DNA of 64,000 nt from Myxococcota bacterium (GCA_965250285.1 OZ252299.1:5248001-5312000), one strand, 5' to 3'; shown: positions 46,511 to 61,720, numbered from the stretch's first letter. Notes: generated by a model from the letters alone, not told the origin. Program-made: numbers and translations.

Positions 46511-47308
46511 ATGTCCGCCGTCCTCGTCGACGTCCAGAACCACGTCATGACCGTGACGTTGAACCGACCCGAGAAGAAGAACGCCGTCAACTGCGAGGTG
46601 ATGTGCCGGCTCTTCGACGCGTGGAAGCGCGTCGATGAAGACGACGACGTGCGCGCTGCGATCCTGACCGGCAACGGCGACACGTTCTGCGCGGGCATGG
46701 ATCTGTCCGAGATCCCCAAGCTCTCGAGTGGCAAGCCCGACAGCGAGTGGATGGAGCGAGTCATGAAGGAGCCCGAGGTCATCTACGGCGCATGGCTCAA
46801 GACCTACCGGCCGACCAAACCGATTCTGCTCGCCGCCGAGGGCTTTGCGCGCGCGGGCGGCACCGAGATCCTGCAGGGCACCGACATTCGCGTCGCCGGC
46901 GAGAGCGCGATGTTCGGTGTGACCGAGGTGCAGCGCGGCCTCTTTCCGATGGCCGGCTCGGCCGTTCGGCTGCGTCGACAGATCCCCTACGCGATCGCAG
47001 CCGAGATGCTGCTCGCGGGTGAAGACCTGCCGGCCAGGCGCGCCTACGAGCTCGGTCTCGTCAATCACATCGTGCCCGACGGGCAGGCGGTCGCGAAGGC
47101 GAACGAGATCGCGACCCGCATCGCCGAGAACGGCCCGCTCGCCGTGAAGGGCATCCTCGCCACCCTGCGCGCGACCGAGACGATGCCCGAAGAAGAGGCC
47201 TTCGTGATCGAGCAGCAGCACGGCATGAAGGTGATGTCGTCGAAGGATGCGGTGGAGGGGCCGCGGGCGTTCCTCGAGAAGCGGAAGCCGGAGTTCACGG
47301 GGGCGTGA
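46511..47308 (+). CDS. Enoyl-CoA hydratase/crotonase
   Basis: LNRPEKKNA, FCAGMDL, AGGTE, EVQRGL and EGPRAFLEKRKPEF. Confidence 0.9.
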   Translation: MSAVLVDVQNHVMTVTLNRPEKKNAVNCEVMCRLFDAWKRVDEDDDVRAAILTGNGDTFCAGMDLSEIPKLSSGKPDSEWMERVMKEPEVIYGAWLKTYRPTKPILLAAEGFARAGGTEILQGTDIRVAGESAMFGVTEVQRGLFPMAGSAVRLRRQIPYAIAAEMLLAGEDLPARRAYELGLVNHIVPDGQAVAKANEIATRIAENGPLAVKGILATLRATETMPEEEAFVIEQQHGMKVMSSKDAVEGPRAFLEKRKPEFTGA

Positions 47309-47695: not shown

Positions 47696-49867
47696 ATGAA
47701 TTTCACGAATTCTAGTGACGGTACTCGTGACGATGGACCCCGCGCCGTGGAGCTGCCGCCGCCGGGGTTCCTGGCGCGCATCGGCGAGGCGGTCGGCCTG
47801 CGGGGCCCCGCCGGTTCGGCCCACTACGACGCCCTGAGCGGCGACGCGCCGCCCTCGGTTGCCCGAGACTGGGTATTCGTGCTCGAGCAGATGAGCCGCG
47901 GGGCCGGTCTGCGGGCCTGCCGGATCGACGGCATGGGTGGGCACGTGCTCGATGCCCTGGGACCGCGCCGTGCGCTGGCCACCTGGCACCCCGAGCATGG
48001 GTGGGTCGGCCTCGTGACCGACGGCCGTGCTCGCCCGCGACTCATTCGCGGTCACGCGCGCGACGAGGTCATCGATCGGGCCTCGTTCGAGCGTCGATTC
48101 GGCGACGTGCTCGATTCACCCGGGTGCTGGATCCAGATCGAGCCGAGCCTGGCCGACGCGTCCCGGGGCGCGGGCGCGCGCCCCAAGCCCGCGGCGCGAC
48201 TGCTCTCGTTGCTTCGGGCAGACCGGTCCGACATCGCCACCGTCGTGGTCTACGCGGTCTTCGCCGGTTTGATGACGCTGGCGACGCCGATCGCCGTCCA
48301 GCAGCTGGTCAACAGCGTCGCCTTCGGTGGGCTCGTGCAACCCGTCGTCGTGCTGGCGATCCTGCTCATGGCCGGGCTCGGGTTCGGCGCCCTGATCTCG
48401 GCGCTGCAGGCCGTCGCGGTCGAGCTGATCCAGCGCCGTATCTTCGTGCGCGCCTGTGCCGACCTCGCCGATCGACTCCCGCGCGTCGATGCGGGGGCCG
48501 TCGAAGGCGGCTTCGGTCCCGAGCTCGTCAACCGTTTCTTCGATCTCGTGACCGTGCAGAAGACGGGTGCGAGTCTGCTGCTCGCAGGCACGTCCCTCGT
48601 GCTGCAGACCCTCGTCGGTCTCACGATCTTGAGCTTCTACCACCCGCTGATGCTCGGCTTCAGCGTCTTCCTCATTCTGGCCATCGCTTTCGTGATGGGC
48701 GTGCTCGGGCGTGGCGCGACGGGCACCGCGATCGCCGAGTCGAGCGCCAAGTACAAGCTCGCCGCCTGGATGGAGGAGCTCGCGCGCGAGCCGGGCCCCT
48801 TCAAGACGCGCAGCGGTCGCCGCTGGGCCGCTCAGCGCGCCGACGATCTCGCCGTGAGCTGGATCGAAGCCCGGCGACAGCACTTCCGCATCGTACTGCG
48901 CCAGGTCGTCGGGTCGCTGGTGCTGCAGGTCGTCGCGGGGACGGCCGTGCTCGGGATCGGCGGCATGCTCGTCGTGAACGGTCAGCTGACACTCGGTCAG
49001 CTGGTCGCTTCCGAGATCATCGTCGCGATCGTGGTCGCGGCCGTCGCGCGCCTCGGCAAGCTGCTCGAGAGCTACTACGACCTGCTCGCCGCGATCGACA
49101 AGTTCGGGACGCTGCTCGACCTGCCGCTCGAGCGCATCGACGGCGATGCGCCGTCGGAGGGCGGCGGCGCAGCCGCGATCGAGCTGCGCGAGGTGGTGAT
49201 CGACGGGCCGCCCGGTGCGACCGCCACGCCGCGTCTCAGCACCCGCGTCGCCCCCGGCGATCGCGTCGCGCTGCGCGGCGGCAATGCGGCGGTGCGCGGC
49301 GAGCTGCTGCGAGCGATCGTCGGCCTCTCTGCTCCGGCGCGCGGTTCGATCCACTACGACGGCGACGAGCTCGATGCCCTCTACCTCGAGGCGCTGCGCG
49401 AGTCGGTCATGGTCGTGGGCGAGCCCGAGCTGCACACGGGCACGATCCTCGACAACCTGCGCGTGGCCCGGCCGGGTGCACCGCGGGCCGCCATCGACGA
49501 GGCCCTCGAACGCGTGGGTCTGGCCGAGATGATCGATTCGCTCCCGCAGGGCGTGCGCACGCGGATCGAGCCTTCGGGTTGGCCTCTCGACGCGGGGGCA
49601 CAGCGTCAGCTGATGCTCGCGCGGGCGGTGCTCGCTTCGCCCCGGGTGCTCTGCGTCGACGACGCCCTCGTGCACCTCGACGCCGAGTCGCGCATTCGGG
49701 CGCTCGAGGTGCTCACCGATCCGGCGGCGCCCTGGACGCTGTTCCTGTCGTCTCACGAGCCGACCGATCTCGCAGCCTGCACGCACGTGTTCGATCTCGA
49801 TACGGGTGAGCTGCGGGCGAGCGTGAACGTCGTGCCCGATGACACCCCTCGCTCGGTCACGGGCTGA
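47696..49867 (+). CDS. T1SS-type ABC transporter (permease + degenerate NBD)
   Basis: PELVNRFFD and GQLTLGQLVASE membrane-domain motifs; GTILDNL; Walker A, signature and Walker B motifs degenerate. Confidence 0.85.
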   Translation: MNFTNSSDGTRDDGPRAVELPPPGFLARIGEAVGLRGPAGSAHYDALSGDAPPSVARDWVFVLEQMSRGAGLRACRIDGMGGHVLDALGPRRALATWHPEHGWVGLVTDGRARPRLIRGHARDEVIDRASFERRFGDVLDSPGCWIQIEPSLADASRGAGARPKPAARLLSLLRADRSDIATVVVYAVFAGLMTLATPIAVQQLVNSVAFGGLVQPVVVLAILLMAGLGFGALISALQAVAVELIQRRIFVRACADLADRLPRVDAGAVEGGFGPELVNRFFDLVTVQKTGASLLLAGTSLVLQTLVGLTILSFYHPLMLGFSVFLILAIAFVMGVLGRGATGTAIAESSAKYKLAAWMEELAREPGPFKTRSGRRWAAQRADDLAVSWIEARRQHFRIVLRQVVGSLVLQVVAGTAVLGIGGMLVVNGQLTLGQLVASEIIVAIVVAAVARLGKLLESYYDLLAAIDKFGTLLDLPLERIDGDAPSEGGGAAAIELREVVIDGPPGATATPRLSTRVAPGDRVALRGGNAAVRGELLRAIVGLSAPARGSIHYDGDELDALYLEALRESVMVVGEPELHTGTILDNLRVARPGAPRAAIDEALERVGLAEMIDSLPQGVRTRIEPSGWPLDAGAQRQLMLARAVLASPRVLCVDDALVHLDAESRIRALEVLTDPAAPWTLFLSSHEPTDLAACTHVFDLDTGELRASVNVVPDDTPRSVTG

Positions 49868-49896
49868 GCGCTGCTTTCGACGGAGTCGACCCCATC

Positions 49897-51198
49897 ATGA
49901 CGCACGAAGAGAACCTCTCTCGCACCGCCTCGAGCTTGATGCTCGTCGAATCGACGTCGGCCCTGCGCCACCTGGCGCAGCTGCTCGTGCTGCTGCTGCT
50001 GCTCGTGTTGCTGGGGCTGATCGCGACGCCCTGGCAGCAGAACGTGACGGGCGCCGGTCGCGTCGTCGCGTTCGAGCCCTACGACCGCATCCAGTCGATC
50101 GCGGCGCCCGTCGACGGACGGATCCGGCAGACGTGGGTCGTCGAGGGCTCTCGCGTGAAGGCGGGCGATCCGATCATCGAGATCGTCGACAACGACCCGG
50201 CCATCCTCGAGCGTCTGCAGGCCCAGCGCGACGCGATGGGCGTGCAGCTCGAGGCCGCACGCGCGAAGGCCGTCATCTACGACGACCAGATCGAGGTGCT
50301 GGGGCATGCCCGTGAGATGGCGACGACCGCGGCCGAGAATCAGGTCGAGGTCGCCGAAGCCTCGGTCGAGTCGGCCCGCCACGGCCTCGACGCGGCCAAG
50401 GCCGCCGCGCAGCAGGTCGAACTGAACTTCGTACGGCAGAGGGAGCTGCTCGCCGAAGGGCTCGCATCCGAGCTCGAGTACGAGATGGCCCAGCGTACGC
50501 ACCTCGAGGCCCGGGCGCGCGTCGAGCAGGCGCGCGAGGCGTGGAACGCGGCGCGCAACGACCAGGAGGCGCGCGAGGCCGAGCTCGGCCAGGTCGACAC
50601 CGAGGCGCGCGCCGGCATCGAGACGGCGAAGGCGCTGCGACAGTCGGTCTCGGTCGAGATCGCCGCGCTCGACGAAGAGGTCGCCGGTCTCGACATGCGC
50701 ATTGCGCGGCAGAACACCCAGCTGCTGACGGCGCCGCGCGACGGCACCGTGCTGCGCGTCTTCGCGGCCCCGGGCGCCGAGCTGGTGAAGGCGGGTGAGC
50801 CGCTCGTGTCGCTCATTCCCGACACGGCGAGCCGCGCCGTCGAGCTCTGGGTCGACGGCAACCACGTGCCCCTCGTCCAGGAGGGACGCCCCGTGCGCCT
50901 CCAGTTCGAGGGCTGGCCGGCGGTTCAGTTCGCCGGCTGGCCGTCGGTCGCGGTCGGGACGTTCGGGGGCCGCGTCGCCCTCGTCGACTCGAGCGCCGAT
51001 GCCGCGGGCCGCTTCCGCACCCTCGTGGTGCCCGATGGCGACGACGAACCGTGGCCCGAACCCGATCTGCTGCGGCAGGGCGCTCGGGCCTCGGGCTTCG
51101 TGCTACTCGACCGGGTGAGCCTCGGCTACGAGCTGTGGCGACAGGCCAACGACTTCCCGCCCACCGCGGCGATGCGAAGCACCCGGAGTGAGTCTTGA
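49897..51198 (+). CDS. HlyD-family membrane fusion protein
   Basis: TPWQQNVTGAG, APVDGRI, a long coiled coil and VRLQFEGWPAVQF.GWP. Confidence 0.9.
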   Translation: MTHEENLSRTASSLMLVESTSALRHLAQLLVLLLLLVLLGLIATPWQQNVTGAGRVVAFEPYDRIQSIAAPVDGRIRQTWVVEGSRVKAGDPIIEIVDNDPAILERLQAQRDAMGVQLEAARAKAVIYDDQIEVLGHAREMATTAAENQVEVAEASVESARHGLDAAKAAAQQVELNFVRQRELLAEGLASELEYEMAQRTHLEARARVEQAREAWNAARNDQEAREAELGQVDTEARAGIETAKALRQSVSVEIAALDEEVAGLDMRIARQNTQLLTAPRDGTVLRVFAAPGAELVKAGEPLVSLIPDTASRAVELWVDGNHVPLVQEGRPVRLQFEGWPAVQFAGWPSVAVGTFGGRVALVDSSADAAGRFRTLVVPDGDDEPWPEPDLLRQGARASGFVLLDRVSLGYELWRQANDFPPTAAMRSTRSES

Positions 51199-52700
51199 GA
51201 CAACTGTCCAGCGAAGTGATCCGCCTGCTCGCGATCGCGACCATGGTGTCGTGGTTCTGCGTGTCGGTCGCACCGAGTTCGGCTTCGACACCGACGGGCA
51301 TCGAGCCCCTCGACCTCGATACCGTCCTCGGCTCGGCCGATGTCCACTTCCCAGCCCTCGTCGTCGCCGAGCTCGAGCGCGGCGTGCGCGCCGAGCAGCT
51401 TCGATCGAGTCGCGGCGGGTTCGATACGCGCCTGGGGCTCGAGGGCGAGGCCCGCCCGGTCGGCTTCTACGAGAACATCGGCGGCGACGTCGAGCTCGAG
51501 CAGCCGACTGCGCTCTGGGGCACGCGCTTCTTCGGTGGGTATCGATACGGCGGGGGTGACTACCCCTCGTACCTGGGCGGTGAGCTGACGGACGAGTCGG
51601 GTGAGATTCGCGGCGGTCTAGAAGTGCCGCTGCTGCGCGGTGGCCCGATCGACTCCGTCCGCGCGGGGATTCGGCGGAGTCGCATCAACCTCGACCAGGT
51701 CGAGCCCGACGTGGCGATTCAGCGTCTCTCGGTGCGCCGCGATGCGGCGCGGGCCTACTGGCAGTGGGTTTCTCGAGGTCTGGTGCTCGACGTGGCCGAG
51801 CGCCTGCTCGAGGTCGCCGTCGATCGCCAGGGGCAGATCGAAGGTCGTGTGCGCCGCGGCGCCGAGGCCGAGATCGACCTGGTCGACAACGAGCGCCTCA
51901 TCGTCGACCGACAACTTCGCCTACGAGGGGCCGAGCGAGACTTCGAGCAGGCCATGGCCACGCTGTCGCTGTATCTGCGCGACGCCGCGGGTGCGCCCGT
52001 CGTCGTCGATCGCAGCTACCTGCCCGCGACCTTCCCCGAAGAGGAGGCGCTCGATCGCGACGCGGTCGAGATCGACCTCGAGGCGGCGCAGGCGCGTCAC
52101 CCGGCGATTCGTCGTCTCCTGCTCGAGATCGATCGTCTCGGCGTCGACGCCTCGCTGGCGCGTAACGATGTGCTGCCCGAGGTCGACCTGAAGGTCGAGG
52201 CGTCGCGCGACTTTGGTGGGGCGGTACCCGGCATCGATACGAGCGGCAGTCTCTCGGCCGCCCCGCGTGCCGAGACCGAGGTGAAGGCGATGCTGCGGGT
52301 CGAATGGCCCTTGCAGCGGCGCGAAGCCCGCGGACGGCTCGCCGTCGCTCGCATCAAGTCGTCCCAGACCGAGCGCCGGTTGCAGCTCGAACGCGAGAAG
52401 ATCGGGGTCGAGGTGCAGAAGGCCGTCGCAAGCATCGGCGCAGCGTACGACCAGACTCGATCTGCGCGACACAACGTCGCGTTGGCCGAGCGGCTTCGTG
52501 TCGCCGAAGAGCGGAAGCTGTCGCTCGGTACGAGCAACCTGATCGACGTCAACATCCGTGAGCTGCAGGCGGCTTCGGCCGCGCTGCTGTTGATCGAGGC
52601 ACAGGCCGACTACTTCGAGGCGCTCGCCGACTACGAGGCGGCGTCGGCGCGAACGTTCGTCGGTGACGTCAGCGCGCCCGCGGCGGCCCCTGAATCATAG
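51195..52700 (+). CDS. TolC-family outer membrane protein
   Basis: Signal peptide; VPLLRG, AARAYW, E.RKL.LG.S.L.DVN.RE; overlaps hlyD. Confidence 0.88.
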   Translation: MRQLSSEVIRLLAIATMVSWFCVSVAPSSASTPTGIEPLDLDTVLGSADVHFPALVVAELERGVRAEQLRSSRGGFDTRLGLEGEARPVGFYENIGGDVELEQPTALWGTRFFGGYRYGGGDYPSYLGGELTDESGEIRGGLEVPLLRGGPIDSVRAGIRRSRINLDQVEPDVAIQRLSVRRDAARAYWQWVSRGLVLDVAERLLEVAVDRQGQIEGRVRRGAEAEIDLVDNERLIVDRQLRLRGAERDFEQAMATLSLYLRDAAGAPVVVDRSYLPATFPEEEALDRDAVEIDLEAAQARHPAIRRLLLEIDRLGVDASLARNDVLPEVDLKVEASRDFGGAVPGIDTSGSLSAAPRAETEVKAMLRVEWPLQRREARGRLAVARIKSSQTERRLQLEREKIGVEVQKAVASIGAAYDQTRSARHNVALAERLRVAEERKLSLGTSNLIDVNIRELQAASAALLLIEAQADYFEALADYEAASARTFVGDVSAPAAAPES

Positions 52701-52734
52701 AGACCAGCGAAGAAAAGACGACACATTTTCTATT
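52697..52734 (+). promoter_or_regulatory. Putative LysR/NhaR box
   Basis: ATAG-N7-CGAA, then N16 and TTCTATT; AT-rich. Confidence 0.5.
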
Positions 52735-52784
52735 TTTCGAATCGGGAAGGTTCGCCGATATTGCAAGGTGAGGAGGCTACGGCC

Positions 52785-53093
52785 ATGGAGTCGACCATCA
52801 GTTCAGGCGAGTTCTACGTGAGTCACTGGATGGAGTCGTTCATCGACACGACGATCCGGTTCGCGATCTGGCGCGCCGAGCCTTCGGTCGAGCACGTCGC
52901 GGTCGGACTCTCCCGTCGCCCCGACGGGCGCGTGAGCTGTCGGCTCGACGCCTGGCGCTCCGACGGATCGACCCTCTCGGCGACGGGCATCGACCGCGAA
53001 GCCTTCGCCGCGATCCAGGGCGCGGCCGATCGGCTCGAGGTGGCGCTCTTTGCGCCGACGGAGCAGTCGAGCGAGGCATGCGTTGCGGCCTGA
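52785..53093 (+). CDS. HPF/RaiA (S30AE)-like small protein
   Basis: GAGGAGG RBS; beta-alpha-beta-beta-beta-alpha pattern ending in AFAAIQGAADRLEVAL. Confidence 0.6.
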   Translation: MESTISSGEFYVSHWMESFIDTTIRFAIWRAEPSVEHVAVGLSRRPDGRVSCRLDAWRSDGSTLSATGIDREAFAAIQGAADRLEVALFAPTEQSSEACVAA

Positions 53094-53181
53094 GCGAGCG
53101 GATCGAAGCCCCGGTTCGACGGGCACCCCGCCGAATCGCCGTGGGCCGTCGTCGGGCCGCGGATCGGGTCTCGATGCCGGT

Positions 53182-54096
53182 CTAGAGCAGACCCAGCTCG
53201 GCGGCCGCTTCGACGACGGCGGCCACGGCCGGGTGCATGATGCGGCGCTCGACGGTCACCGCATAGAGGTACTCACGCACCTCTTCGGTCTCGCCGACGA
53301 GCTGCACGCCATGCGTCCTTCGGACCTCGTCGGCGACGACGATCGGCGAGGCGAAGATGCCGGCTTCATGAGCGCCGAACACCTTCATGAGGGCCGAGTC
53401 TTCGATCTCGCCCACGATGTGGGGACGCACGTCCAGCTTGGCGAGCCACTCGTCGAGCGAGTGACGAAGGGCCACGTTCGATGTCGGCAGGAGCATCGGC
53501 GCGCCGTTCAGGCTCTCGGGGAACCGGCGCCGGTACTTGCGAGCGAGGGCGGGCGACGCGAAGAAGCCGATGCCGCAGTCGCCGAGGCTGTGGTTGTAGG
53601 CCTTGACGCGCACCTGGCCGCGAAAGGGCACGTCGGCCAACACCATGTCGTACGTCTGTTGCGCCAACGCGGCGATGAGGTCGTCGGTCTTGCCTTCGTG
53701 CAGCACGAGCTGCACGGGCTCGTCGAGCTTGAGTGCGATGTCGAGCAGGTTGTAGGCGACCAGCTTCGGCACTGCGTCGGCGATGCCGACGATCAACTTC
53801 GACGGGCGGTTGGTCGGTCGCCCGCGCAGGGCGTCCATCATCTCACGCCCCGTCGAGAAGATCTCATCGGCGTAGCGGTAGACGAGCTGCCCCGACTCGG
53901 TGAGGACGAGGTTGCGGCCGTCGCGCATGAAGAGCTTCTCGCCGAGCGAGTCCTCGAGCTTGCGGATCTGACCGCTGAGTGTGGGCTGCGCGAGGCGCAG
54001 CACCTCGGCGGCACGCGTCACGCTGCCCTCACGGGCCACCGTGTAGAAGTAGAGGAGATGGTGGTAGTTGAGCCACTCGATGCCCCGTTCCTCCAT
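53182..54096 (-). CDS. nhaR: LysR-family activator, NhaR type
   Basis: WLNYHHLLYFYTVAREGSV, QPTLSGQI, VGIADAVPKL, GEIEDSALMKVFG and ERRIMHPAV. Confidence 0.88.
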   Translation of the reverse strand: MEERGIEWLNYHHLLYFYTVAREGSVTRAAEVLRLAQPTLSGQIRKLEDSLGEKLFMRDGRNLVLTESGQLVYRYADEIFSTGREMMDALRGRPTNRPSKLIVGIADAVPKLVAYNLLDIALKLDEPVQLVLHEGKTDDLIAALAQQTYDMVLADVPFRGQVRVKAYNHSLGDCGIGFFASPALARKYRRRFPESLNGAPMLLPTSNVALRHSLDEWLAKLDVRPHIVGEIEDSALMKVFGAHEAGIFASPIVVADEVRRTHGVQLVGETEEVREYLYAVTVERRIMHPAVAAVVEAAAELGLL

Positions 54097-54131
54097 CGAG
54101 ATTTACGAAGCGAAGATAACAATCATCGATT
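54095..54131 (+). promoter_or_regulatory. Putative NhaR box in the divergent nhaR/HPF-like promoter
   Basis: ATCG-N7-CGAA overlapping the nhaR start codon, then N15 and ATCGATT. Confidence 0.55.
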
Positions 54132-54149
54132 CGAATGGGAGATGAGTGC

Positions 54150-54473
54150 ATGAGAGTCCGAGTCATCGGGATGCCCGTGGGCGCAGACTCGCTTCGGCCG
54201 GGCTCCGTCGAGCGCCGCATCCGTCTGGTGGTCGGCCGACGGGCTGCGGGGATCTCACAGGTCGAAGTCGTGCTCGCGCGCTTCGATCCGCCGACGCACG
54301 GCGCGCGCCAGACCAGTCGTCATCAGCTGCGCTGCCGCGTTCGGGCCCGTCTGGCCGATGGCGAGCTGATCGTCGTCGAAGAGACCGGCCCGACGACGGA
54401 CGAAGCGCTCGAGGCTGCGATGTGGCGGCTCGAGCATCGACTCGATCGACCGGCCACGCGCCAATCGGCTTAG
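54150..54473 (+). CDS. HPF/RaiA (S30AE)-like small protein
   Basis: VERRIRLVVGR, ISQVEVVL, RCRVRA and EALEAAMWRLEHRL; divergent from nhaR. Confidence 0.65.
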   Translation: MRVRVIGMPVGADSLRPGSVERRIRLVVGRRAAGISQVEVVLARFDPPTHGARQTSRHQLRCRVRARLADGELIVVEETGPTTDEALEAAMWRLEHRLDRPATRQSA

Positions 54474-54483
54474 CGAACTCGAT

Positions 54484-56109
54484 CTAGTCGGCGAGATCCT
54501 CGAGGCGGAGCGCCTGGGTCGGGCAGTACTTCACGGCGCGCTCGACCTTGGCGCGCAGCTCGGCGGTGGGTTCTTCTTCGATCAGCGCGACTTTGTCTTC
54601 GTCGTTCACGCGCTCGATGTCGAACACCTCGGGCGCCTCGCCCATGCAGACCGCATGCCCCTGGCAGAGGTCGAGGTCGACGCACACGCGGTACGGCTTC
54701 GCGGGCGAGACCGAGTCGGCGAACCCGGTGGTGGCCGCAGGGGCCGTCGATGCGGTGCGCCGTCGATACCGAAGCATGCACGGCTGCCTGACCGCGACGA
54801 CCATCTTCGAGAGGTCGTTGCCGTAGCTCGATAGCGGCTGCGAGAGTTCGAACTCGTAGTTGCGCAGCACGATCGAGAAGATCGCCTTGAGCTGCATCAA
54901 CGCGAAGGCCGCGCCGACGCACTTGTGTCGGCCGGCGCCGAACGGGATCCAGGCGAAGGGCTGCCGATCTTCGGCTCGGTCGCCCAGGTAGCGCTCGGGG
55001 TCGTACGTGTCGGGGTCGGGGAAGTGCTCGGGCAGCCGATGTGAGACCACGGTCGACGTGGCCACGGTCTTGCCGGCCGGGATCACGTAGTCGCCGAAGC
55101 GAAAGTCGTGCATCACCTTGCGCATCAGGATCGTGAGCGGCGGATGAAGCCGCAGAGATTCCTTGATCGCACACTCGAGCGAAGGGATCTCGCGCAGCGC
55201 CTGAAACGACACATCACGTCCATCGGCGTAGATCGCGTCGAGCTCGCTGGTCACCCGCTGGATCCAGTCGGGATGCATCAGCAGATCGAGCATCGTCCAC
55301 GAGGCCACGGCCGACGAGGTGTGGTGCCCTGCGAACATCAGCGAGATGAACATGCCGGTGATCTGAGCCGGCGTGTATCGCGGGTTGCCGTCGCCGTCCT
55401 TCACGCCGCGGAGGATGTGGAACAGATCGCTGTATTCACCGCCTTCGCGGTCGCGCCGCTCGAAGATCGCTTCGATCTTCGCGACGATCGCGTGTCGCGC
55501 GCGGTCCCGGGCTCGCAGGGCCGGGAGCGGCAGGTAGGGGTTCACGTAGGCGAGTGCATCGGTGCCGCGCTCGAGGTCGTAGAAGAGCGGCACGTAGTCG
55601 GCGCTCAGCTCGTCGCGAAACTGCTTGCCGACGAGGCACGTGCTCGACGTATAGAGCGTGAGCTCCGAGAAGAAGTCGAGGGCATCGATCTCGCCCGATT
55701 CGCCCCAGCGCTCGATCATGGCCTCGGTCTCGGCGGCGATGTGCTCGGCGTGTCCGCGCATGAACTTGTCGCGCAGAGACTGGTTGCGCATCGCCTGCTT
55801 GCGCTGCTCGGGGGTCGCATCGAATACGACCCCCTCGCCGAAGACCGGCTTCATGAAGGGATAGGCCGCGGCCTGGTCGAGTTGCTCGTCGGGCGCTCGA
55901 AAGAACGCCTCCTGAGCGTCGTTGCCCGTCAGCAGGACGATCTCGTTGCCGGCGAGGTTGAACTCACCGACCTCGCCGCACTCGTCGCGCACGCGCTGCA
56001 TGAAGGCGAGCGGGTCGCGCCGCAGCTCGAGCAGGTGGCCGATCAGCGGCCAGCCGCCCGATACGCGGGGCGGCGCCAGATCCTTCGAGAGGGGGGTCGC
56101 GGCGGCCAT
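54484..56109 (-). CDS. cyp51: CYP51-family cytochrome P450 (sterol 14alpha-demethylase-like) fused to a C-terminal [3Fe-4S] ferredoxin
   Basis: AYPFMKPVFGEGVVFDA (SRS1), MFAGHHTS (I-helix), KESLRLHPPL and WIPFGAGRHKCVG; Ala/Thr linker; CQGHAVC...CP ferredoxin at about 54487-54693; AGGAG RBS. Confidence 0.9.
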   Translation of the reverse strand: MAAATPLSKDLAPPRVSGGWPLIGHLLELRRDPLAFMQRVRDECGEVGEFNLAGNEIVLLTGNDAQEAFFRAPDEQLDQAAAYPFMKPVFGEGVVFDATPEQRKQAMRNQSLRDKFMRGHAEHIAAETEAMIERWGESGEIDALDFFSELTLYTSSTCLVGKQFRDELSADYVPLFYDLERGTDALAYVNPYLPLPALRARDRARHAIVAKIEAIFERRDREGGEYSDLFHILRGVKDGDGNPRYTPAQITGMFISLMFAGHHTSSAVASWTMLDLLMHPDWIQRVTSELDAIYADGRDVSFQALREIPSLECAIKESLRLHPPLTILMRKVMHDFRFGDYVIPAGKTVATSTVVSHRLPEHFPDPDTYDPERYLGDRAEDRQPFAWIPFGAGRHKCVGAAFALMQLKAIFSIVLRNYEFELSQPLSSYGNDLSKMVVAVRQPCMLRYRRRTASTAPAATTGFADSVSPAKPYRVCVDLDLCQGHAVCMGEAPEVFDIERVNDEDKVALIEEEPTAELRAKVERAVKYCPTQALRLEDLAD

Positions 56110-56125
56110 GGCGGCTCTCCTGGTG

Positions 56126-56992
56126 TCACGCGGTGTGGATGAACTCGTCGGCAAAGCGCCGAATCGCGTCGATCTTCCGGTCGACGTCGTCCTCGGTGAT
56201 GCCGTACATGAGCCACGGCACGGTGGTCAGGTGCGTCACGCCGACGTCCTCCATCTCGCGGTAGTGATCGCGGGTGAAGCCGTCTCGCAGCGCCGCGCTG
56301 ATGCCGAAGGGTCGATCGGCCCGGTCGCTCTCGGCGCGCCAGCCCTGCATCTTGCGAGCCGCCTCGCGGATCTCGTCGCGCGTATTGATCTCGCTCACCC
56401 ACCCGTCGAGACGCGTCGCCGCGCGGCGCATGGCCCGCTCCGACGTGCCTCCGCCCCACATCGGAACGGGCCGGGTGGGGACGGGGCTGATTCGAAGCGG
56501 CTCGAAGTCGTAGAACTCGCCGTGATGCTCGACATCGCCCCCGGCGTGCAGCTGCCGGACGATCTCGATGCACTCCTCGAGCCGCCGGCCGCGTTGTTCG
56601 AACGGCACGCCGAGCAGATCGAACTCCTCGCGCATCCAGCCCGCACCGAGGCCGAGAATGAGCCGCCCGCCCGCCAGGATATCGACGGTGGCGATCTCTT
56701 TCGCCGCGACGACCGGGTGACGCAGACTCATCAGGTAGATGCTCGTCAACACGTGCAGACGCTCGGTGGCGGCGGCGATGGCGCCGGCGGCGATCATCGG
56801 ATCGGGCCACGCGGTGTCGCGATCCCAGCGCGGCTCCCCGCTCGACGTGTAGGGATACGGCGTCTTCAGATCGGCCGGGTAGATCAGGTGATCCGACACC
56901 ACCACGCTGTGGAAGCCGGCCTCGTCGGCGGCCCGGGCGAGGGGGATCCACTGATCGGGCGCATTGAATGCGAGGGCGATCGAGAACTGCAT
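56126..56992 (-). CDS. LLM-class, probably F420-dependent, oxidoreductase (Rv2161c/TIGR03619-like)
   Basis: GFHSVVVSDH, YPY, WPDP, LRHPVVAAK, GLGAGWMREEF and RRAA..LDGW. Confidence 0.85.
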   Translation of the reverse strand: MQFSIALAFNAPDQWIPLARAADEAGFHSVVVSDHLIYPADLKTPYPYTSSGEPRWDRDTAWPDPMIAAGAIAAATERLHVLTSIYLMSLRHPVVAAKEIATVDILAGGRLILGLGAGWMREEFDLLGVPFEQRGRRLEECIEIVRQLHAGGDVEHHGEFYDFEPLRISPVPTRPVPMWGGGTSERAMRRAATRLDGWVSEINTRDEIREAARKMQGWRAESDRADRPFGISAALRDGFTRDHYREMEDVGVTHLTTVPWLMYGITEDDVDRKIDAIRRFADEFIHTA

Positions 56993-56999
56993 CGATGGC

Positions 57000-57039
57000 A
57001 GCGTAAAATATTGAAATGGTCATTTCAAATTTTTATACT
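57000..57039. promoter_or_regulatory. Overlapping divergent sigma70 promoters sharing a palindromic TetR operator
   Basis: TTGAAATG-GT-CATTTCAA (57011-57028); + strand TTGAAA-17-TATACT; - strand TTGAAA-17-TACGCT. Confidence 0.8.
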
Positions 57040-57068: not shown

Positions 57069-57746
57069 GTGGCAGCAAGAAGTCGTCGAGGTGGAGGGCG
57101 CGCGGGCGCCAAGAAGGCGCCGGCCAAGCGCAAGAGTCGGGTCGTCGAGGCGCGGCGCGAGCTCTACCGCCAGCTGATCATCGAGGGGGCCGAGCGCGCC
57201 TTCGCCGAGCGGGGCTACGACGACACGAAGATGGAGCACATCGCCAGCGAGTCGGGTCTTTCGATGGGCACCGTCTACAGCGTGTTTCCGGGCAAGGCGA
57301 AGATCTTCTCGGCGGTGCACGAGGCCGCCGATGCCGAGCTGCTGCGGCGCGGACTCGAGTGCTTCGACGAAGACGAGCCGCCGCTCGAGCGTCTGCTGGC
57401 CGGCGTGCGGGCGACGGTCGAGTACTTCATCGAGCACCCCGACTTTCTGCGCATGGAACTCAATGAAGGCCTCGCGTGGAGCGCCGAGACCGCGGCGCGC
57501 GGCGGAAGCCGCAGCCGCGCGCGCCGACGGGGTCTCGAGCTGATGAAACGCTCGGTCGCCAACTGTGTGGAGGCGGGCTCGTTCATCGCCGCCGAGCCCG
57601 AGCTGGTCGCGCGAATGATGATCGCGGTGTACCAGGTGCAGCTCGCCTACTGGCTCGAGGGTGGCATGAAGCGACCCGCCGCCGACGTGCTCGAAGACGT
57701 GACCGAGCAGGTGAAGCGCTCGTTCTGCGCGCCGGGCGTCTCATGA
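57069..57746 (+). CDS. TetR/AcrR-family regulator
   Basis: AERAFAERGYDDTKMEHIA.ESGLSMGTVYSVFPGK HTH; GGAGG RBS before GTG 57069. Confidence 0.9.
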   Translation: MAARSRRGGGRAGAKKAPAKRKSRVVEARRELYRQLIIEGAERAFAERGYDDTKMEHIASESGLSMGTVYSVFPGKAKIFSAVHEAADAELLRRGLECFDEDEPPLERLLAGVRATVEYFIEHPDFLRMELNEGLAWSAETAARGGSRSRARRRGLELMKRSVANCVEAGSFIAAEPELVARMMIAVYQVQLAYWLEGGMKRPAADVLEDVTEQVKRSFCAPGVS

Positions 57747-59203
57747 ACAGCGCCGACTTTCGTCCACTCGCGCGACGCGAAGTCGAACGCTGGGACGCCG
57801 AGCACGACGTCGTCGTCGTCGGCGAGGGCATCGCGGGCGGTGCGGCGGCGATCGAAGCGGCACGGGCGGGCGCCGATACCGTCGTGCTCGAGCGCATGAC
57901 GCGGGGAGGTGGGGCGACCTCGCTCTCGACGGGCATCACCTACTTCGGTGGTGGAACCGAGATCCAGAAGGCCTGCGGCTTCGAGGACAGCGTCGAAGAC
58001 ATGAAGGCCTTCGTCGAGCTCGCCGCGGGCGCCCAGGCCGACCCCGAGCGCGTGCGCCTCTACTGCGAAGGGAGCCTCGAGCACTTCGACTGGTTCCGCG
58101 CGCTCGGCGTCGAGTTCAAGCCCACGTTCATCGAAGAGAAGACGACGCATCCGTTCACCGACGACTGCCTGACGTTCAGCGGCAACGAGGAGGCGTGGCC
58201 TCACAACGCACAGACCCGCCCCGTGCCGCGCGGCCACAAGCCCGCACGAGAAGGGGAGGCCGGCGGTCTCTTGATGGAGGCCGTGCTCGCGGGCGTGCGG
58301 GAGGCCGGTGCCCGCGTCGTGAACGAGTGCCGAGTCGAGCGGCTGGTCGTCGACGACGGCGGACGCATCGTGGGCGTCGCCGGTCGCCGCGAGGGCACGC
58401 CCTTCTTCGTGGGCGCGCGCCGGGGCGTGGTGCTCGCGACGGGAGGGTTCGTCTTCAACGACGAGATGCTCGCGAAGCACGCGCCGCAGCTGCTTCAGTG
58501 CAACTACAAGGTCGGCACCGAGGGTGACGATGGCTCGGGGATCAACATGGGCGCGGCGGCCGGGGGCGAGACGGTCAACATGGCCGAGGGCCTCGTTCTC
58601 AACGCGTACTACCCACCCGCTTCGCACCTGAAGGGTGTGCTCGTCGATGCGAACGGCCAACGATTCGTCAACGAAGACTCGTATCTCGGTCGCACCAGTG
58701 ATGCGATCGTCACCCGCGCCGAGGGCCGCGCGTGGCTGATCGTCGACGACGAGATCCACGGTCAAACCCAGGCGATGCACCGCATCGCAGCCGTCGAAGA
58801 GAGCTGGGAGGCCCTCGAGCGAGCGCTCGAGCTGCCCGAGGGTGCGCTCGTGCAGACCATGCACGGGTACAACGCGCACGCGGCGACGGGCCGCGACCCG
58901 CTCTTTCACAAGGCGCCGAGATACCTGAAGCCGCTCGTCGACCCGCCCTTCGGCGCGCTCGACTGCAGCACGAGCGGCTCGATCTTCGGCGTGTTCACCC
59001 TGGGTGGGCTCTCGGTGGCGGCGACGGGCGAGGTGCTCGACCACGCCGGCCGCGCCGTGCCGGGTCTGTTCGCAGCGGGCCGCTGTACGGCCGGTCTCTG
59101 CCGCGAGGGGCGCAACTACGCGAGCGGTCTGTCGATCGGCGACGGCAGCTTCTTTGGCCGACTCGCGGGGCGCTCCGCGGCTCGAATGGAGCCCTGCCCG
59201 TGA
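57743..59203 (+). CDS. FAD-dependent oxidoreductase, 3-ketosteroid Delta4(5alpha)-dehydrogenase-like
   Basis: DVVVVGEGIAG, GGGTEIQKACGFEDS, ARRGVVLATGGF, NEDSYLGR, FTLGGL and YASGLSIGDGSFFGR; ATGA overlap. Confidence 0.75.
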   Translation: MNSADFRPLARREVERWDAEHDVVVVGEGIAGGAAAIEAARAGADTVVLERMTRGGGATSLSTGITYFGGGTEIQKACGFEDSVEDMKAFVELAAGAQADPERVRLYCEGSLEHFDWFRALGVEFKPTFIEEKTTHPFTDDCLTFSGNEEAWPHNAQTRPVPRGHKPAREGEAGGLLMEAVLAGVREAGARVVNECRVERLVVDDGGRIVGVAGRREGTPFFVGARRGVVLATGGFVFNDEMLAKHAPQLLQCNYKVGTEGDDGSGINMGAAAGGETVNMAEGLVLNAYYPPASHLKGVLVDANGQRFVNEDSYLGRTSDAIVTRAEGRAWLIVDDEIHGQTQAMHRIAAVEESWEALERALELPEGALVQTMHGYNAHAATGRDPLFHKAPRYLKPLVDPPFGALDCSTSGSIFGVFTLGGLSVAATGEVLDHAGRAVPGLFAAGRCTAGLCREGRNYASGLSIGDGSFFGRLAGRSAARMEPCP

Positions 59204-61245
59204 GCGGGTACACCCGTCTGCTCTCGCCCGCTCGCATCGGCTCGATGGCGCTGCGCAACCGCGTCGTGATGTCGCCGATGGAGACCTGCTACGCGACGCG
59301 TGACGGACAACCGTCCGATCGGAGCATCGCGTACTTCGAAGAGCGCGCCCGGGGCGGTGTCGGGCTGATCACGCTGGGCGCCTGCACGGTCGATGCCGCA
59401 CATCGAGAGGTGCCGAACTCGATCGACTTCGGTCGCGACGAGGTGATCGAGGCGCATCGCGCACTGACCGAGCGGGTGCACGCACACGGCGCGAAGATCC
59501 AGCCCCAGCTCGTGCACCCGGGGCCGGACGGGCTCGCGCCCTACCTCTCGAACACGCCGAACGTCGGCCCTTCGGTGATCCCGTCGTACCTCACCGGCAT
59601 TCCGTCGCGTGAGCTCGATGCCGACGAGATCCCGGCCATCGTCGATACGTACGCAAAGGCCGCGCTACGTGTGCGCGAGGCGGGCTACGACGGCATCGAG
59701 CTGCACGCGGCCCATGGCTACATGTTGCTGGGCTCGTTCCTCACGCCGACGCGCAATCGCCGGTCCGACGCCTACACCGGCCAGACGGCCGAGGGCCGCA
59801 CGCGGCTGATCATCGAGGTGCTGCACGCGTTGGCCGGTGCGGTCGGGCGCGACTTTCCGATCACGCTCCGCATCTCGGGCTACGAACGGGTGCCCGGTGG
59901 CCGGGGCATCGCCGACACCCAGGCCATCGCCCCGTCGCTCGTCGAGGCCGGGGTCGATGCGTTTCATGTGAGCGGCGGCGTGATCGACCCCCTGACGAGC
60001 CAGATGGTGACGGGCTCGCACTATGCACCGGCGCACAATGTGGGTGCGGCAGAGGCGGTCAAGCAGGTCGTCGACGTGCCCGTGATCGCGGTCGGGCGCA
60101 TCCACGATCCCGATCTCGCCGAACGGATCCTCACCGAGGGCCGTGCGGATCTGATCGCCATGGCGCGTCCGCTGCTCGCCGACGCCGAGATCGTCACCAA
60201 GCTCGAGTCTGGGCGCGCCCGCGAGATTCGCCGCTGCATCTCTTGCCAGAACTGCATCGAGTCGATGGAGACCGGCCGCATGAGCTGCGCCGTCAACGCG
60301 CGCACGGGTCGCGAGGCCGAGATCTCGCTCGAACCGGTGAGCGAATCGAAGCGGGTGATCGTCGTCGGCGGCGGTCCCGGCGGCCTCGAAGCGGCTCGTG
60401 TCGCGGCGCGCCGTGGGCATCGCGTCTCGCTCTTCGAGCGCGGCGCCGCCCTCGGCGGCTCGCTCGTGATGGCCTCGACGGTGCACCCCGACAACACACC
60501 GCTGCTCGACTTCCTGTGTGCCGACGTCGCACGGGCGGGTGTCGAGGTGCACCTCGAAGAGCACCTCGATGCGGCCTCGGTGGCGCGCCTCGCGCCCGAC
60601 GCCGTCATCGTGGCCACCGGCGGCCAGGTGGTCGCCGCGCGGATCGAGGGGGCCGACGCCGATCACGTCTGGACCGGCCCGTTGCTGCGCGAGCTGATCG
60701 CGGGGCGCGTCTCCGATGCGGCCGCGAAGAAGCTGCCCGGGTGGCAACGTGCCGGGCTCGCGCTGCTCGGGGCGCGGCTGCAGCGTTGGATGACCCCCGC
60801 CCGGTGGCGCGCCCTCGCCCGGTGGTGGCTGCCGCTCGGTCACCGCGTCGTGATCGTGGGGGGCGATCTCGCCGCGACCGAGCTCGCCGAGTGGCTGGCC
60901 GAGCTCGGGCGTCGCGTGAGCGTGATCGAAGCCGGTTCAGACATCGCGCACGAGGTCGGGCTCAAGCGCCGGACCGAGCACATGGAGCGGCTCGACAGAC
61001 TCGGCGTGACGGTGCACACGCAGACCCACGTCGCACGGATCGAGCGCGGCGTGGTTCGGCTCGAGGGCGGCGCGCAGATTGAAGCCGACTCGGTGATCGT
61101 GGCGGGCGAGCCCGCACCCGACACCACGCTCTTCGACGCGCTCAAGGGCAGCGCCCCCGACGTCATCGCCGTCGGTGACTGCACCGGTCTCGGCTTGATC
61201 CGCAAGGCCATCGAAGAGGGCGCCCGCGCGGGCGCGTCGATCTAA
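59200..61245 (+). CDS. NADH:flavin oxidoreductase (OYE barrel + Fe-S + FAD domains; FadH/BaiCD-like ene-reductase)
   Basis: LRNRVVMSPM, IELHAAHGY, CISCQNC...C and VIVVGGGPGGLEAA; GTGA overlap. Confidence 0.88.
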   Translation: MSGYTRLLSPARIGSMALRNRVVMSPMETCYATRDGQPSDRSIAYFEERARGGVGLITLGACTVDAAHREVPNSIDFGRDEVIEAHRALTERVHAHGAKIQPQLVHPGPDGLAPYLSNTPNVGPSVIPSYLTGIPSRELDADEIPAIVDTYAKAALRVREAGYDGIELHAAHGYMLLGSFLTPTRNRRSDAYTGQTAEGRTRLIIEVLHALAGAVGRDFPITLRISGYERVPGGRGIADTQAIAPSLVEAGVDAFHVSGGVIDPLTSQMVTGSHYAPAHNVGAAEAVKQVVDVPVIAVGRIHDPDLAERILTEGRADLIAMARPLLADAEIVTKLESGRAREIRRCISCQNCIESMETGRMSCAVNARTGREAEISLEPVSESKRVIVVGGGPGGLEAARVAARRGHRVSLFERGAALGGSLVMASTVHPDNTPLLDFLCADVARAGVEVHLEEHLDAASVARLAPDAVIVATGGQVVAARIEGADADHVWTGPLLRELIAGRVSDAAAKKLPGWQRAGLALLGARLQRWMTPARWRALARWWLPLGHRVVIVGGDLAATELAEWLAELGRRVSVIEAGSDIAHEVGLKRRTEHMERLDRLGVTVHTQTHVARIERGVVRLEGGAQIEADSVIVAGEPAPDTTLFDALKGSAPDVIAVGDCTGLGLIRKAIEEGARAGASI

Positions 61246-61267: not shown

Positions 61268-61720
61268 GTGATCTACTACGAAGACTACGAGATCGGCGCG
61301 AAGCGTCGGATGGGCTCGGTCACGCTCTCGAAGGAGGAGATCGTCGACTTCGCGCGCAAGTTCGATCCACAGCCGTTTCACATCGACGAGGCGGCAGCCG
61401 AGGCCTCGATCTTCGGTGGACTGACCGCGTCGTCGTGCCACACGTTCGCGCTGACCGGTCTGATCAATGCGCAGAACATCGAGAAGTCGGCGGTGGTCGC
61501 GAACCTGGGTGCCGATTCGCTGAGATTTCCCGAGCCGGTGCGACCCGGCGACACGCTGACGCTCACGAGCGAGTGCACTGAGAAGCGCGTCTCGAAGTCG
61601 CGCCCTTCGATCGGCATCGTCGCGTGCCGGACGTGCCTCGAGAACCAACAGGGCGTGATCGTGATGGACGTGATGATGCGCTTCATGGTGCAGCTGCGCG
61701 CAGGGGCCGAAGCCGGGTAG
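61268..61720 (+). CDS. MaoC-family dehydratase
   Basis: FARKFDPQPFHIDE, FGGLTAS and LRFPEPVRPGDTL. Confidence 0.88.
   Translation: MIYYEDYEIGAKRRMGSVTLSKEEIVDFARKFDPQPFHIDEAAAEASIFGGLTASSCHTFALTGLINAQNIEKSAVVANLGADSLRFPEPVRPGDTLTLTSECTEKRVSKSRPSIGIVACRTCLENQQGVIVMDVMMRFMVQLRAGAEAG

Follow-up and report, generated by a model that had tools for sequence, protein, structure and literature searches.

A CYP51-ferredoxin fusion gene in a myxococcotal genome in which no sterol synthesis genes were found

Why do bacteria without sterol production keep a CYP51? This question is addressed in PMC7947880 and PMC13277303, and the former reports more than 1,000 bacterial CYP51s, the majority of them in sterol non-producers. 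It is also raised by a gene on a stretch of 64,000 nucleotides from a Myxococcota bacterium (GCA_965250285.1 OZ252299.1:5248001-5312000; the whole 64-kb stretch is called the window), which encodes a P450 of the CYP51 family fused to a ferredoxin (CYP51fx). Sequence comparisons suggest that the fusion protein, P0001, probably 14-demethylates sterols imported from other organisms, on the way to their breakdown, and a probability of roughly 0.6 is assigned to this reading. In the following, G000 is the source genome, L, G and P numbers denote the loci, genomes and proteins that were compared, and X1 to X3 are sequencing runs of a single study.

A CYP51 of the mycobacterial type with a tethered ferredoxin

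Translation of the fusion gene (Table 1) yields 541 amino acids in a single frame with zero internal stops. Pfam models recognize a p450 domain (residues 14-424, E 9e-70) and a Fer4_15 domain (residues 475-535, E 2e-8, above cut-off). The CYP51 motifs that the initial annotation had quoted are indeed present, YPFMKPVFGEGV at residue 83 (YPFMKPVFG) and FAGHHTS at 259, and they are followed by ExxR at 317 and by the heme-ligand motif FGAGRHKC at 390, with Cys397 as the ligand. The signatures and invariant heme contacts of CYP51 as named in PMC7947880 were also found, i.e., the B' helix / B'C loop signature, the I-helix H-T-(T/S) triad (AGHHTS, His263-Thr264), and Tyr83, Arg330, His395 and Cys397 (the first three are Tyr76, Arg326 and His392 in M. 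tuberculosis numbering). The closest match in the PDB is M. tuberculosis CYP51B1 (1e9x, 554 bits, E 2.6e-165), followed by the M. marinum enzyme (7tef, 549 bits) and M. capsulatus CYP51fx (6mcw, 524 bits at full length and 468 for the P450 domain), which bears out the claimed closeness to CYP51B1 rather than to the Methylococcus fusion. An AlphaFold model built with 41 aligned sequences (pLDDT 85) has a P450 fold, a loose linker with pLDDT below 50 at residues 460-464, and a small ferredoxin fold. CYP51 structures rank first in a Foldseek search with this model (1e9x, 56% identity, TM 0.91; M. capsulatus, 48-49%).

The in-frame joining to a His-type ferredoxin was likewise described correctly, with CQGHAVC at 482 and CP at 529. 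The linker sequence TASTAPAATTG is present in frame at 452, but it represents only the first half of the linker, which extends to about residue 472 (about 18-20 amino acids). The C-terminal 138 amino acids match 6mcw through linker and ferredoxin (E 1.7e-27) and also the mycobacterial ferredoxin 8amp (E 1.8e-12), and the third-position GC content is even across the gene (P450 0.88, linker 0.90, ferredoxin 0.90). C482, H485, C488 and C529-P530 constitute a CXXHXXC(X)nCP motif without a fourth cysteine ligand, preceded by an extra Cys476. As this is the motif of the mycobacterial [3Fe-4S] ferredoxin Fdx (bioRxiv 10.1101/2022.11.02.514812), the domain would carry a [3Fe-4S] cluster. CYP51fx proteins are defined in PMC7947880 by a P450, a linker of 20-30 amino acids, and a ferredoxin of 64-82 amino acids with three cysteines; P0001 has both domains in one frame, with the linker length given above. 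By sequence, signature residues, predicted fold and phylogenetic position P0001 is a CYP51, and sterol 14alpha-demethylase activity is predicted for it.

The phylogenetic position was determined with a maximum-likelihood tree (LG+G4) of 61 P450 domains, from which 27 of the 88 rows of an earlier quick tree had been dropped as long branches, fragments or near-duplicates. The tree was calculated without Methylococcus or eukaryotic sequences and its long branches meet at the root; L240 served as a stand-in for Methylococcus (667 bits to the Methylococcus P450 domain versus 467 to that of M. tuberculosis). P0001 is located inside a clade of 48 rows (support 100/100) that includes the mycobacterial CYP51B1 orthologues, and thus inside CYP51, while L240 and the polyangial fusions are outside. 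At the substrate-marker position P0001 (Phe85) and all readable members of the clade have Phe, the polyangial group has Ile, and L240 has Leu. In T. brucei and M. tuberculosis the Phe marker has been tied to a preference for obtusifoliol, but for M. capsulatus the marker gave a wrong prediction (PMC7947880). As judged from the tree, the P450 of P0001 belongs to the group of mycobacterial CYP51B1 and is separate from the fusions found in sterol producers. The order also contains a second CYP51-like clade (L224-L238, L242), which shows 40-45% identity, an adjacent ferredoxin, and GFHT in the I-helix of most members, and which possibly has a diverged activity.

P0001 was also compared with the known systems. 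M. capsulatus CYP51fx (6mcw, 6mi0, 7snm; PMC7947880) shares with P0001 the N-terminal CYP51, a linker of about 20-30 amino acids, the C-terminal three-cysteine ferredoxin with His, and the need for a separate reductase. However, the P450 domains are only 48-49% identical and belong to different subclades, the substrate marker is Ile81 instead of Phe, and the host of P0001 lacks detectable sterol synthesis genes. The polyangial fusions (Sandaracinaceae, Polyangiaceae; P0189, P0193, P0217, P0230, P0245) have the same two-domain design, but are 43-45% identical, form a separate 100/100 clade, and carry the Ile marker. In contrast, mycobacterial CYP51B1 (Rv0764c) and Fdx (Rv0763c) are encoded by adjacent genes, yet they share with P0001 54-56% identity, the clade, the Phe marker, the His-type ferredoxin, and a host without sterol production.

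Sterol synthesis, partner and breakdown genes in the source genome

The G000 assembly consists of one contig of 6.25 Mb and is 95.4% complete. The chromosome is not closed, as the contig starts within a DnaK-like gene, genes are cut at its ends, and the ends show no overlap. The bacterial set for de novo sterol synthesis, i.e., squalene synthase, squalene epoxidase and oxidosqualene cyclase, was not found in this contig. Searches with PF13243, PF08491 and PF00494 for cyclase, epoxidase and synthase were negative for G000 (0/1 each) with positive controls, and when two epoxidase-cyclase fusions and one hopene cyclase from relatives were used as tblastn queries, a single match was obtained in G000, with an E value of 0.002 and outside the cyclase domain. 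In G001, a genome of the same genus (83% complete), cyclase and squalene synthase were not found either. Hence, the genome search for squalene monooxygenase and oxidosqualene cyclase that had been proposed in the initial annotation turned up neither gene in G000, and the view of G000 as a sterol producer is not supported. Because these genes were not found, the bearing of the fusion on the origin of sterol synthesis, which had been pointed out as well, is only indirect, and the enzyme likely acts on sterols from other organisms.

The partner of CYP51 in the module of Lee, Giner and Welander 2026 (PMC13277303) is the reductase 8,14-Bsr. The trio Cyp51/ferredoxin/8,14-Bsr is described there for Methylococcaceae, Mycobacteriales and uncultured Myxococcota, the ferredoxin being in every case either a fusion partner or the product of a neighbouring gene. 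G000 has the Cyp51 / 8,14-Bsr module. The putative 8,14-Bsr homologue is an NTF2/SnoaL protein of 186 amino acids (G000 C1:1791201-1791761), which is preceded by a second, free His-type ferredoxin, a difference from the mycobacterial cluster, and is 43-47% identical to the product of the gene after fdx in mycobacteria. Its residues F36, Y42, Y77, Y79, D132 and D135 have the spacing of the tested active-site residues Y37, Y43, Y78, Y80, D133 and D136, the first of which tolerates Phe (PMC13277303). This spacing and the position of the gene are the basis of the assignment, which was made without aligning the protein directly to that of M. capsulatus. In most relatives Bsr directly follows the fusion, whereas in G000 it is 3.5 Mb away.

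A CYP51-like match is present in 112 of the 146 genomes of the order, and a Bsr homologue in 90. The latter is found in 87 of the 89 clade genomes versus 3 of the other 57; kin are not independent, and no p-value is attached to this co-occurrence. Bsr is located inside 38 of 48 cyp51 loci, usually directly after the ferredoxin. The order, which consists of uncultured bacteria, thus keeps the mycobacterial-type CYP51 together with its partner reductase, and in most cases no cyclase accompanies them: one was found in 5 of the 89 clade genomes, and an oxidosqualene cyclase-like gene in 4 of the 82 genomes with a CYP51 of at least 55% identity. This supports an action of the enzyme on scavenged sterols. 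Cyclase-free carriers of the Myxococcota type are not treated as a group in the main text of PMC13277303, and one of its supplement files gave no match to the M. tuberculosis locus tag or the lineage names; the supplementary figures of PMC13277303, PMC7947880 and PMC12004948 may already include members of this lineage. In five loci (L214, L215, L216, L034, L041) Bsr directly follows CYP51 with no ferredoxin in between, counter to the "always fused or co-localised" ferredoxin. The run at G000 C1:1791201-1795625 (L105:11204-15622) comprises an SDR, an aldehyde dehydrogenase, the free His-type ferredoxin and the Bsr homologue, arranged as in L221 and L222. In those two loci an unfused CYP51 heads the run; it is missing from the G000 run, and the fused CYP51 is located elsewhere.

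Further homologues of the mycobacterial cyp51/hpoR cluster are present but scattered over G000. The best matches are an aldehyde dehydrogenase (54%), an SDR (62%), a CYP123-like P450 (53%) and two NTF2 proteins (44% and 54%); homologues of the CMD protein and of SDRs also occur. Compared with the mycobacterial cluster, that of G000 is split over at least five places and lacks the HpoR box, in place of which there is another palindrome, as well as orthologues of KstD, HsaA and HsaC.

Genes for the breakdown of the side chain and of rings C and D (FadD3, IpdAB and neighbours) were found in G000. In comparison with the mycobacterial cholesterol clusters, IpdA-like (61%) and IpdB-like (50%) proteins, FadD3 (47%, above the NCBIfam cut-off), and Ltp-type thiolases (52-67%) were detected, and thiolases and SDRs scored above cut-off. 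The names IpdA/B/C and Ltp are assumed from best matches to the mycobacterial cluster and from its gene order. An EchA19-like enoyl-CoA hydratase is encoded within the window (46511-47308, plus strand); it is 52% identical to a mycobacterial side-chain enzyme beside FadD19 and reaches 340 bits at a cut-off of 400.

A route can be proposed from these genes. CYP51fx would remove the 14alpha-methyl group from sterols taken up from other organisms, and Phe85 would favour 4-monomethyl, obtusifoliol-type substrates. CYP51 enzymes perform three oxidations that release the 14-methyl group as formate and leave a delta8,14-diene, and electrons flow from NAD(P)H via a separate reductase and the tethered cluster to the heme. 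The reductase could be the ferredoxin reductase at G000:C1:3025980-3027194. The delta8,14-diene would be converted by the 8,14-Bsr homologue into the 8(14)-ene, while a delta4-(5alpha)-dehydrogenase homologue and an ene-reductase encoded next to the fusion would act on double bonds of the rings. Breakdown of the side chain and of rings C and D would follow. A Mycobacterium that converts lanosterol into an 8(14) C19 steroid is cited in PMC13277303.

Several results weigh against breakdown as the fate of the imported sterols. Six-frame searches of G000 with references passing NCBIfam cut-offs yielded best matches of only 24-26% for KstD, 32% for HsaA, 29% over 139 amino acids for HsaC (run with mycobacterial controls), and 30-31% for KshA. 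Five Rieske proteins with a KshA_C domain occur in G000, only 30-33% identical to mycobacterial KshA, and no NCBIfam model names the Rieske or NTF2 proteins of G000, so that the former may be of the SdmA, Neverland or KshA type. With no KstD, HsaC, HsaA or clear KshA, the known aerobic route through rings A and B is missing from G000. Neither KstD nor HsaC was found in 39 of the 82 genomes with a CYP51 of at least 55% identity, in order-wide searches that scored only 8 or 15 candidates per genome. The co-occurrence of CYP51 with an IpdA-like gene (78 of these 82 genomes) is weak evidence because almost every genome of the order has such a gene (128 of 146 genomes; KstD-like 63, HsaC-like 56, the latter two from the searches just mentioned). 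Moreover, the assembly is open and incomplete, and the sterol-finishing genes of G000, described below, fit remodelling better than breakdown. It is possible that an undescribed route through rings A and B exists, or that the cells do no more than strip sterols and live by cross-feeding on C/D fragments.

Alternative explanations and the frequency of the fusion

The first alternative is that imported lanosterol-like precursors are finished into own membrane or signalling sterols, with CYP51fx catalyzing the first step as in a sterol auxotroph. Its strength is a set of genes that G000 contains without a cyclase: the methyltransferase run, two ERG4/ERG24 reductases (both in Table 1), two FA_hydroxylase proteins, and the Bsr homologue; the missing genes for the breakdown of rings A and B also speak for it. 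Close homologues of the methyltransferase are annotated as sterol 24-C-methyltransferase. A single 46-kb contig of X1 carries the run with 0 differences, at a comparable depth (33 vs 42), and the methyltransferase-Rieske pair recurs in the cyclase-bearing genome G010 (L247). A GGR homologue reduces sterols at C-24 in Myxococcota (PMC12004948); orthology of the GGR-like protein of G000 is not assumed. The two ERG4/ERG24 reductases are 46% identical to each other, and both are kept in G001 (79%, 83%). There is precedent for a methyltransferase with no cyclase in sight, as a cyclase was found with 13 of 24 metagenomic methyltransferases (PMC10070321). Literature searches gave no paper describing a genome that lacks a cyclase but has all the sterol-modifying genes seen here.

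However, the methyltransferase occurs in only 3 of the 146 genomes (E 1e-50) and ERG4/ERG24 in 29 (4 with a cyclase, 25 without a visible one), compared with CYP51 plus Bsr in 87. Remodelling therefore cannot be the general role. In addition, the finishing genes show no linkage to the fusion and lack both of the operator motifs described below, no EBP isomerase was found in G000, and genes for the breakdown of the side chain and rings C/D are present. Remodelling as the role of the fusion is thus regarded as unlikely, though not negligible.

A more novel reading covers both fates. The lineage would then be a sterol salvager without squalene cyclisation, in which 14-methyl sterols are either finished into own C-24-alkylated sterols, by a set consisting of CYP51fx, 8,14-Bsr, the two ERG4/ERG24 reductases, the methyltransferase, the GGR-like reductase and the Rieske oxygenase, or sent to C/D-ring breakdown via an A/B route that needs neither KstD nor HsaC. 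This idea is put forward tentatively. If it were true, the pool of sterols from which the sterane record arises would be altered by cyclase-free bacteria, and the free-living carriers would provide a means of working out what the mycobacterial cyp51 cluster does. If the finishing genes act on imported sterols, the assignment of alkylated or 8(14) sterols to producers in biomarker work would require a caveat.

The second alternative is a changed substrate, non-sterol or only partly sterol-like, or a part in redox defence such as has been suggested for the mycobacterial hpoR operon. It has been stated that CYP51s of non-producers may have new functions (PMC7947880), the M. smegmatis operon has been linked to H2O2 resistance (PMC5909442), and the fusion has left the Bsr operon and is found under a different TetR and operator. 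Yet all tested sterol-contact and proton-relay residues are kept, the co-occurrence with a reductase that acts on the CYP51 product is near-strict, a ketosteroid dehydrogenase homologue is encoded next door, and the HpoR box has no site in G000. A departure from sterols, or from sterol metabolism, is accordingly a distinctly unlikely explanation.

The third alternative is that sterols are made de novo and that the squalene and cyclase genes fell into an assembly gap. It starts from the open contig ends, the many post-cyclase genes of G000, and the relatives. A fusion of squalene epoxidase and oxidosqualene cyclase with the DCTAE motif was found in 9 of the 146 genomes, four of which have this CYP51 type. 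But three separate functions would have to be absent together from a 95.4% complete single contig, with cyclase and squalene synthase absent also from G001, and the cyclase-bearing genomes G032 and G070, which have few P450s, use a different CYP51 of the polyangial type with the Ile marker. It is therefore very improbable that G000 makes its own sterols. The epoxidase-cyclase fusions (L127-L135, from G032, G070, G114, G141, G085, G008, G010, G110 and G007) are about 1,100-1,250 amino acids long and all score below the TIGR03463 cut-off, and several adjoin genes for TetR or DXP synthase. Strong PF13243 matches in 40-odd relatives were rejected as oxidosqualene cyclases, as they are hopene cyclases with a DDTA motif (6/6 checked).

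The last alternative, an error hiding a stop between cyp51 and fdx, can practically be dismissed: although all 56 actinobacterial loci examined and several relatives have cyp51 and fdx as separate genes, and long-read frameshifts are known in the family (L032), the short contigs of two runs show no base difference over the linker, both domains are present in 118 of the 120 best homologues listed, and the nearest orthologue (87% identity) is also fused. This was checked with Logan contigs, not with reads. One 28-kb contig of X1, which may be the source of this DNA, covers 54200-56400, and a contig of X2 covers 54200-54889 including the linker, both with 0 differences; X3 has no contig piece crossing the linker. 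A stop codon in the linker, for which the initial annotation had suggested a check, and a frameshift are thereby ruled out as far as contigs can show, and the fusion is genuine.

The fusion is less noteworthy than had been assumed, because it is not rare. More than 50 bacterial CYP51-ferredoxin fusions have been published (PMC7947880), and they have been called not rare, with a separate reductase still required (bioRxiv 10.1101/2022.11.02.514812). In the order, 56 of the 82 genomes with a close CYP51 (at least 55% identity) have a match through both domains, two of which contain a stop whose position was not located. The genes are fused in 30 of 100 loci, with linkers of 18-29 amino acids, and in 0 of 56 actinobacterial loci, with a few duplicates between the two sets. 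The fusion state changed at least 8 times among 60 labelled tree rows, the direction (fusion vs fission) not being readable from this, and a tree forcing all fused rows into one clade was rejected (p-AU 1.7e-4). Therefore, the fusion is labile and a weak marker for the deep history of the P450. By itself it is one more sequence in a published class, and the cyclase-free and KstD-free setting matters more. Nevertheless, a fused enzyme from a non-pathogen is a convenient object for testing the role of CYP51 on scavenged sterols.

Neighbouring genes and putative operators

Table 1. Features of the fusion locus (window coordinates) and sterol-finishing genes elsewhere in G000
Feature	Position	Strand	Basis or remark
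CYP51-ferredoxin fusion gene (P0001)	54484..56109	-	translation; fused orthologues
CYP51 P450 domain, residues 11-453	54751..56079	-	alignment to 1e9x; Foldseek
Ala/Thr-rich linker, residues 454-470	54700..54750	-	low model confidence, variable among relatives
Single-cluster ferredoxin domain	54487..54699	-	Cys482-x2-His485-x2-Cys488 ... Cys529-Pro530
F420-dependent LLM-class oxidoreductase	56126..56992	-	TIGR03619 218.6 bits, cut-off 166.9; 16 nt upstream of fusion
Palindrome TTGAAATG-GT-CATTTCAA	57011..57028	.	perfect arms; between divergent operons, overlaps -35 box
TetR-family regulator	57069..57746	+	Pfam TetR_N; divergent from fusion operon
3-Ketosteroid delta4-(5alpha)-dehydrogenase homologue	57743..59203	+	PDB 4at0 E 2.3e-116; NF005510 above cut-off
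FadH/BaiCD-like flavin ene-reductase	59200..61245	+	56-59% to genes in L048, L067, L050, L084
MaoC-like dehydratase	61268..61720	+	Pfam MaoC_dehydratas; last gene of divergent operon
Four-gene run: sterol C-24 methyltransferase family, GGR-like FAD reductase, Rieske oxygenase (KshA_C), desaturase-like membrane protein	G000:C1:2116218-2121046 (L180:6218-11046)		
ERG4/ERG24 sterol reductases, two, solitary	G000:C1:4490176-4491441, 4857590-4858828 (L253, L254)		E 5e-119 to 4quv

The gene for the LLM-class oxidoreductase and the fusion are likely a two-gene operon with the former as the first gene; the LLM-class gene also adjoins the fusion in L021 and is near the fusion in L204, and the latter locus has the same neighbours around its fusion as the window. 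The palindrome is the single site of its kind in the genome (up to 2 mismatches), a similar site is present in L021, and it is predicted to be the operator of the adjacent TetR regulator. A promoter-like site is found at 57011-57039. On the minus strand of the palindrome, TTGAAA and TACGCT are separated by 17 nt and end a few bases before the start codon of the LLM-class gene (56992-57028); this match is below the scan threshold. The arrangement suggests a leaderless transcript of the putative operon.

TetR homologues adjoin CYP51-like genes in 7 of 48 loci, G000 being excluded from the count. The delta4-(5alpha)-dehydrogenase homologue is one of four close paralogues in G000 (43-47%), and the Tyr/Tyr/Ser that we take to be its catalytic residues appear conserved in the alignment with 4at0. 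This FAD protein was also considered as a KstD and was rejected, as it matches the delta4-(5alpha) enzyme far better. The ene-reductase is the orthologue of a gene inside several cyp51 clusters of non-tuberculous mycobacteria, while no MaoC-like dehydratase was found in other cyp51 loci at the thresholds used.

The HpoR operator motif GGACANNTGTCC, taken from PMC5909442, has 0 sites in G000, with two sites in each of 3 mycobacterial loci as the control. A 22-nt near-palindrome, in contrast, has three intergenic sites in G000 (C1:1327789, 1794430, 3027282), which are located before the Bsr operon, between the ferredoxin reductase gene and the CYP123-like gene, and before another P450 gene. The pattern was derived from the first two G000 sites, and the third site and the matches in other loci are independent of that. 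It was also found in 13 of 39 other loci, mostly immediately upstream of the cyp51 operon, and shuffles gave 0, 1 and 0 sites. It is a candidate operator of the lineage's counterpart of the HpoR regulon, through which the ferredoxin reductase and two more P450s would be connected with the Bsr operon.

The segment of the window immediately downstream of the fusion (47696-54473) encodes an ABC transporter, HlyD and an outer-membrane efflux protein, which form a type I secretion-like trio. It also holds an NhaR-like LysR gene and two small genes of the HPF/RaiA type, and the segment is apparently unrelated to the fusion.

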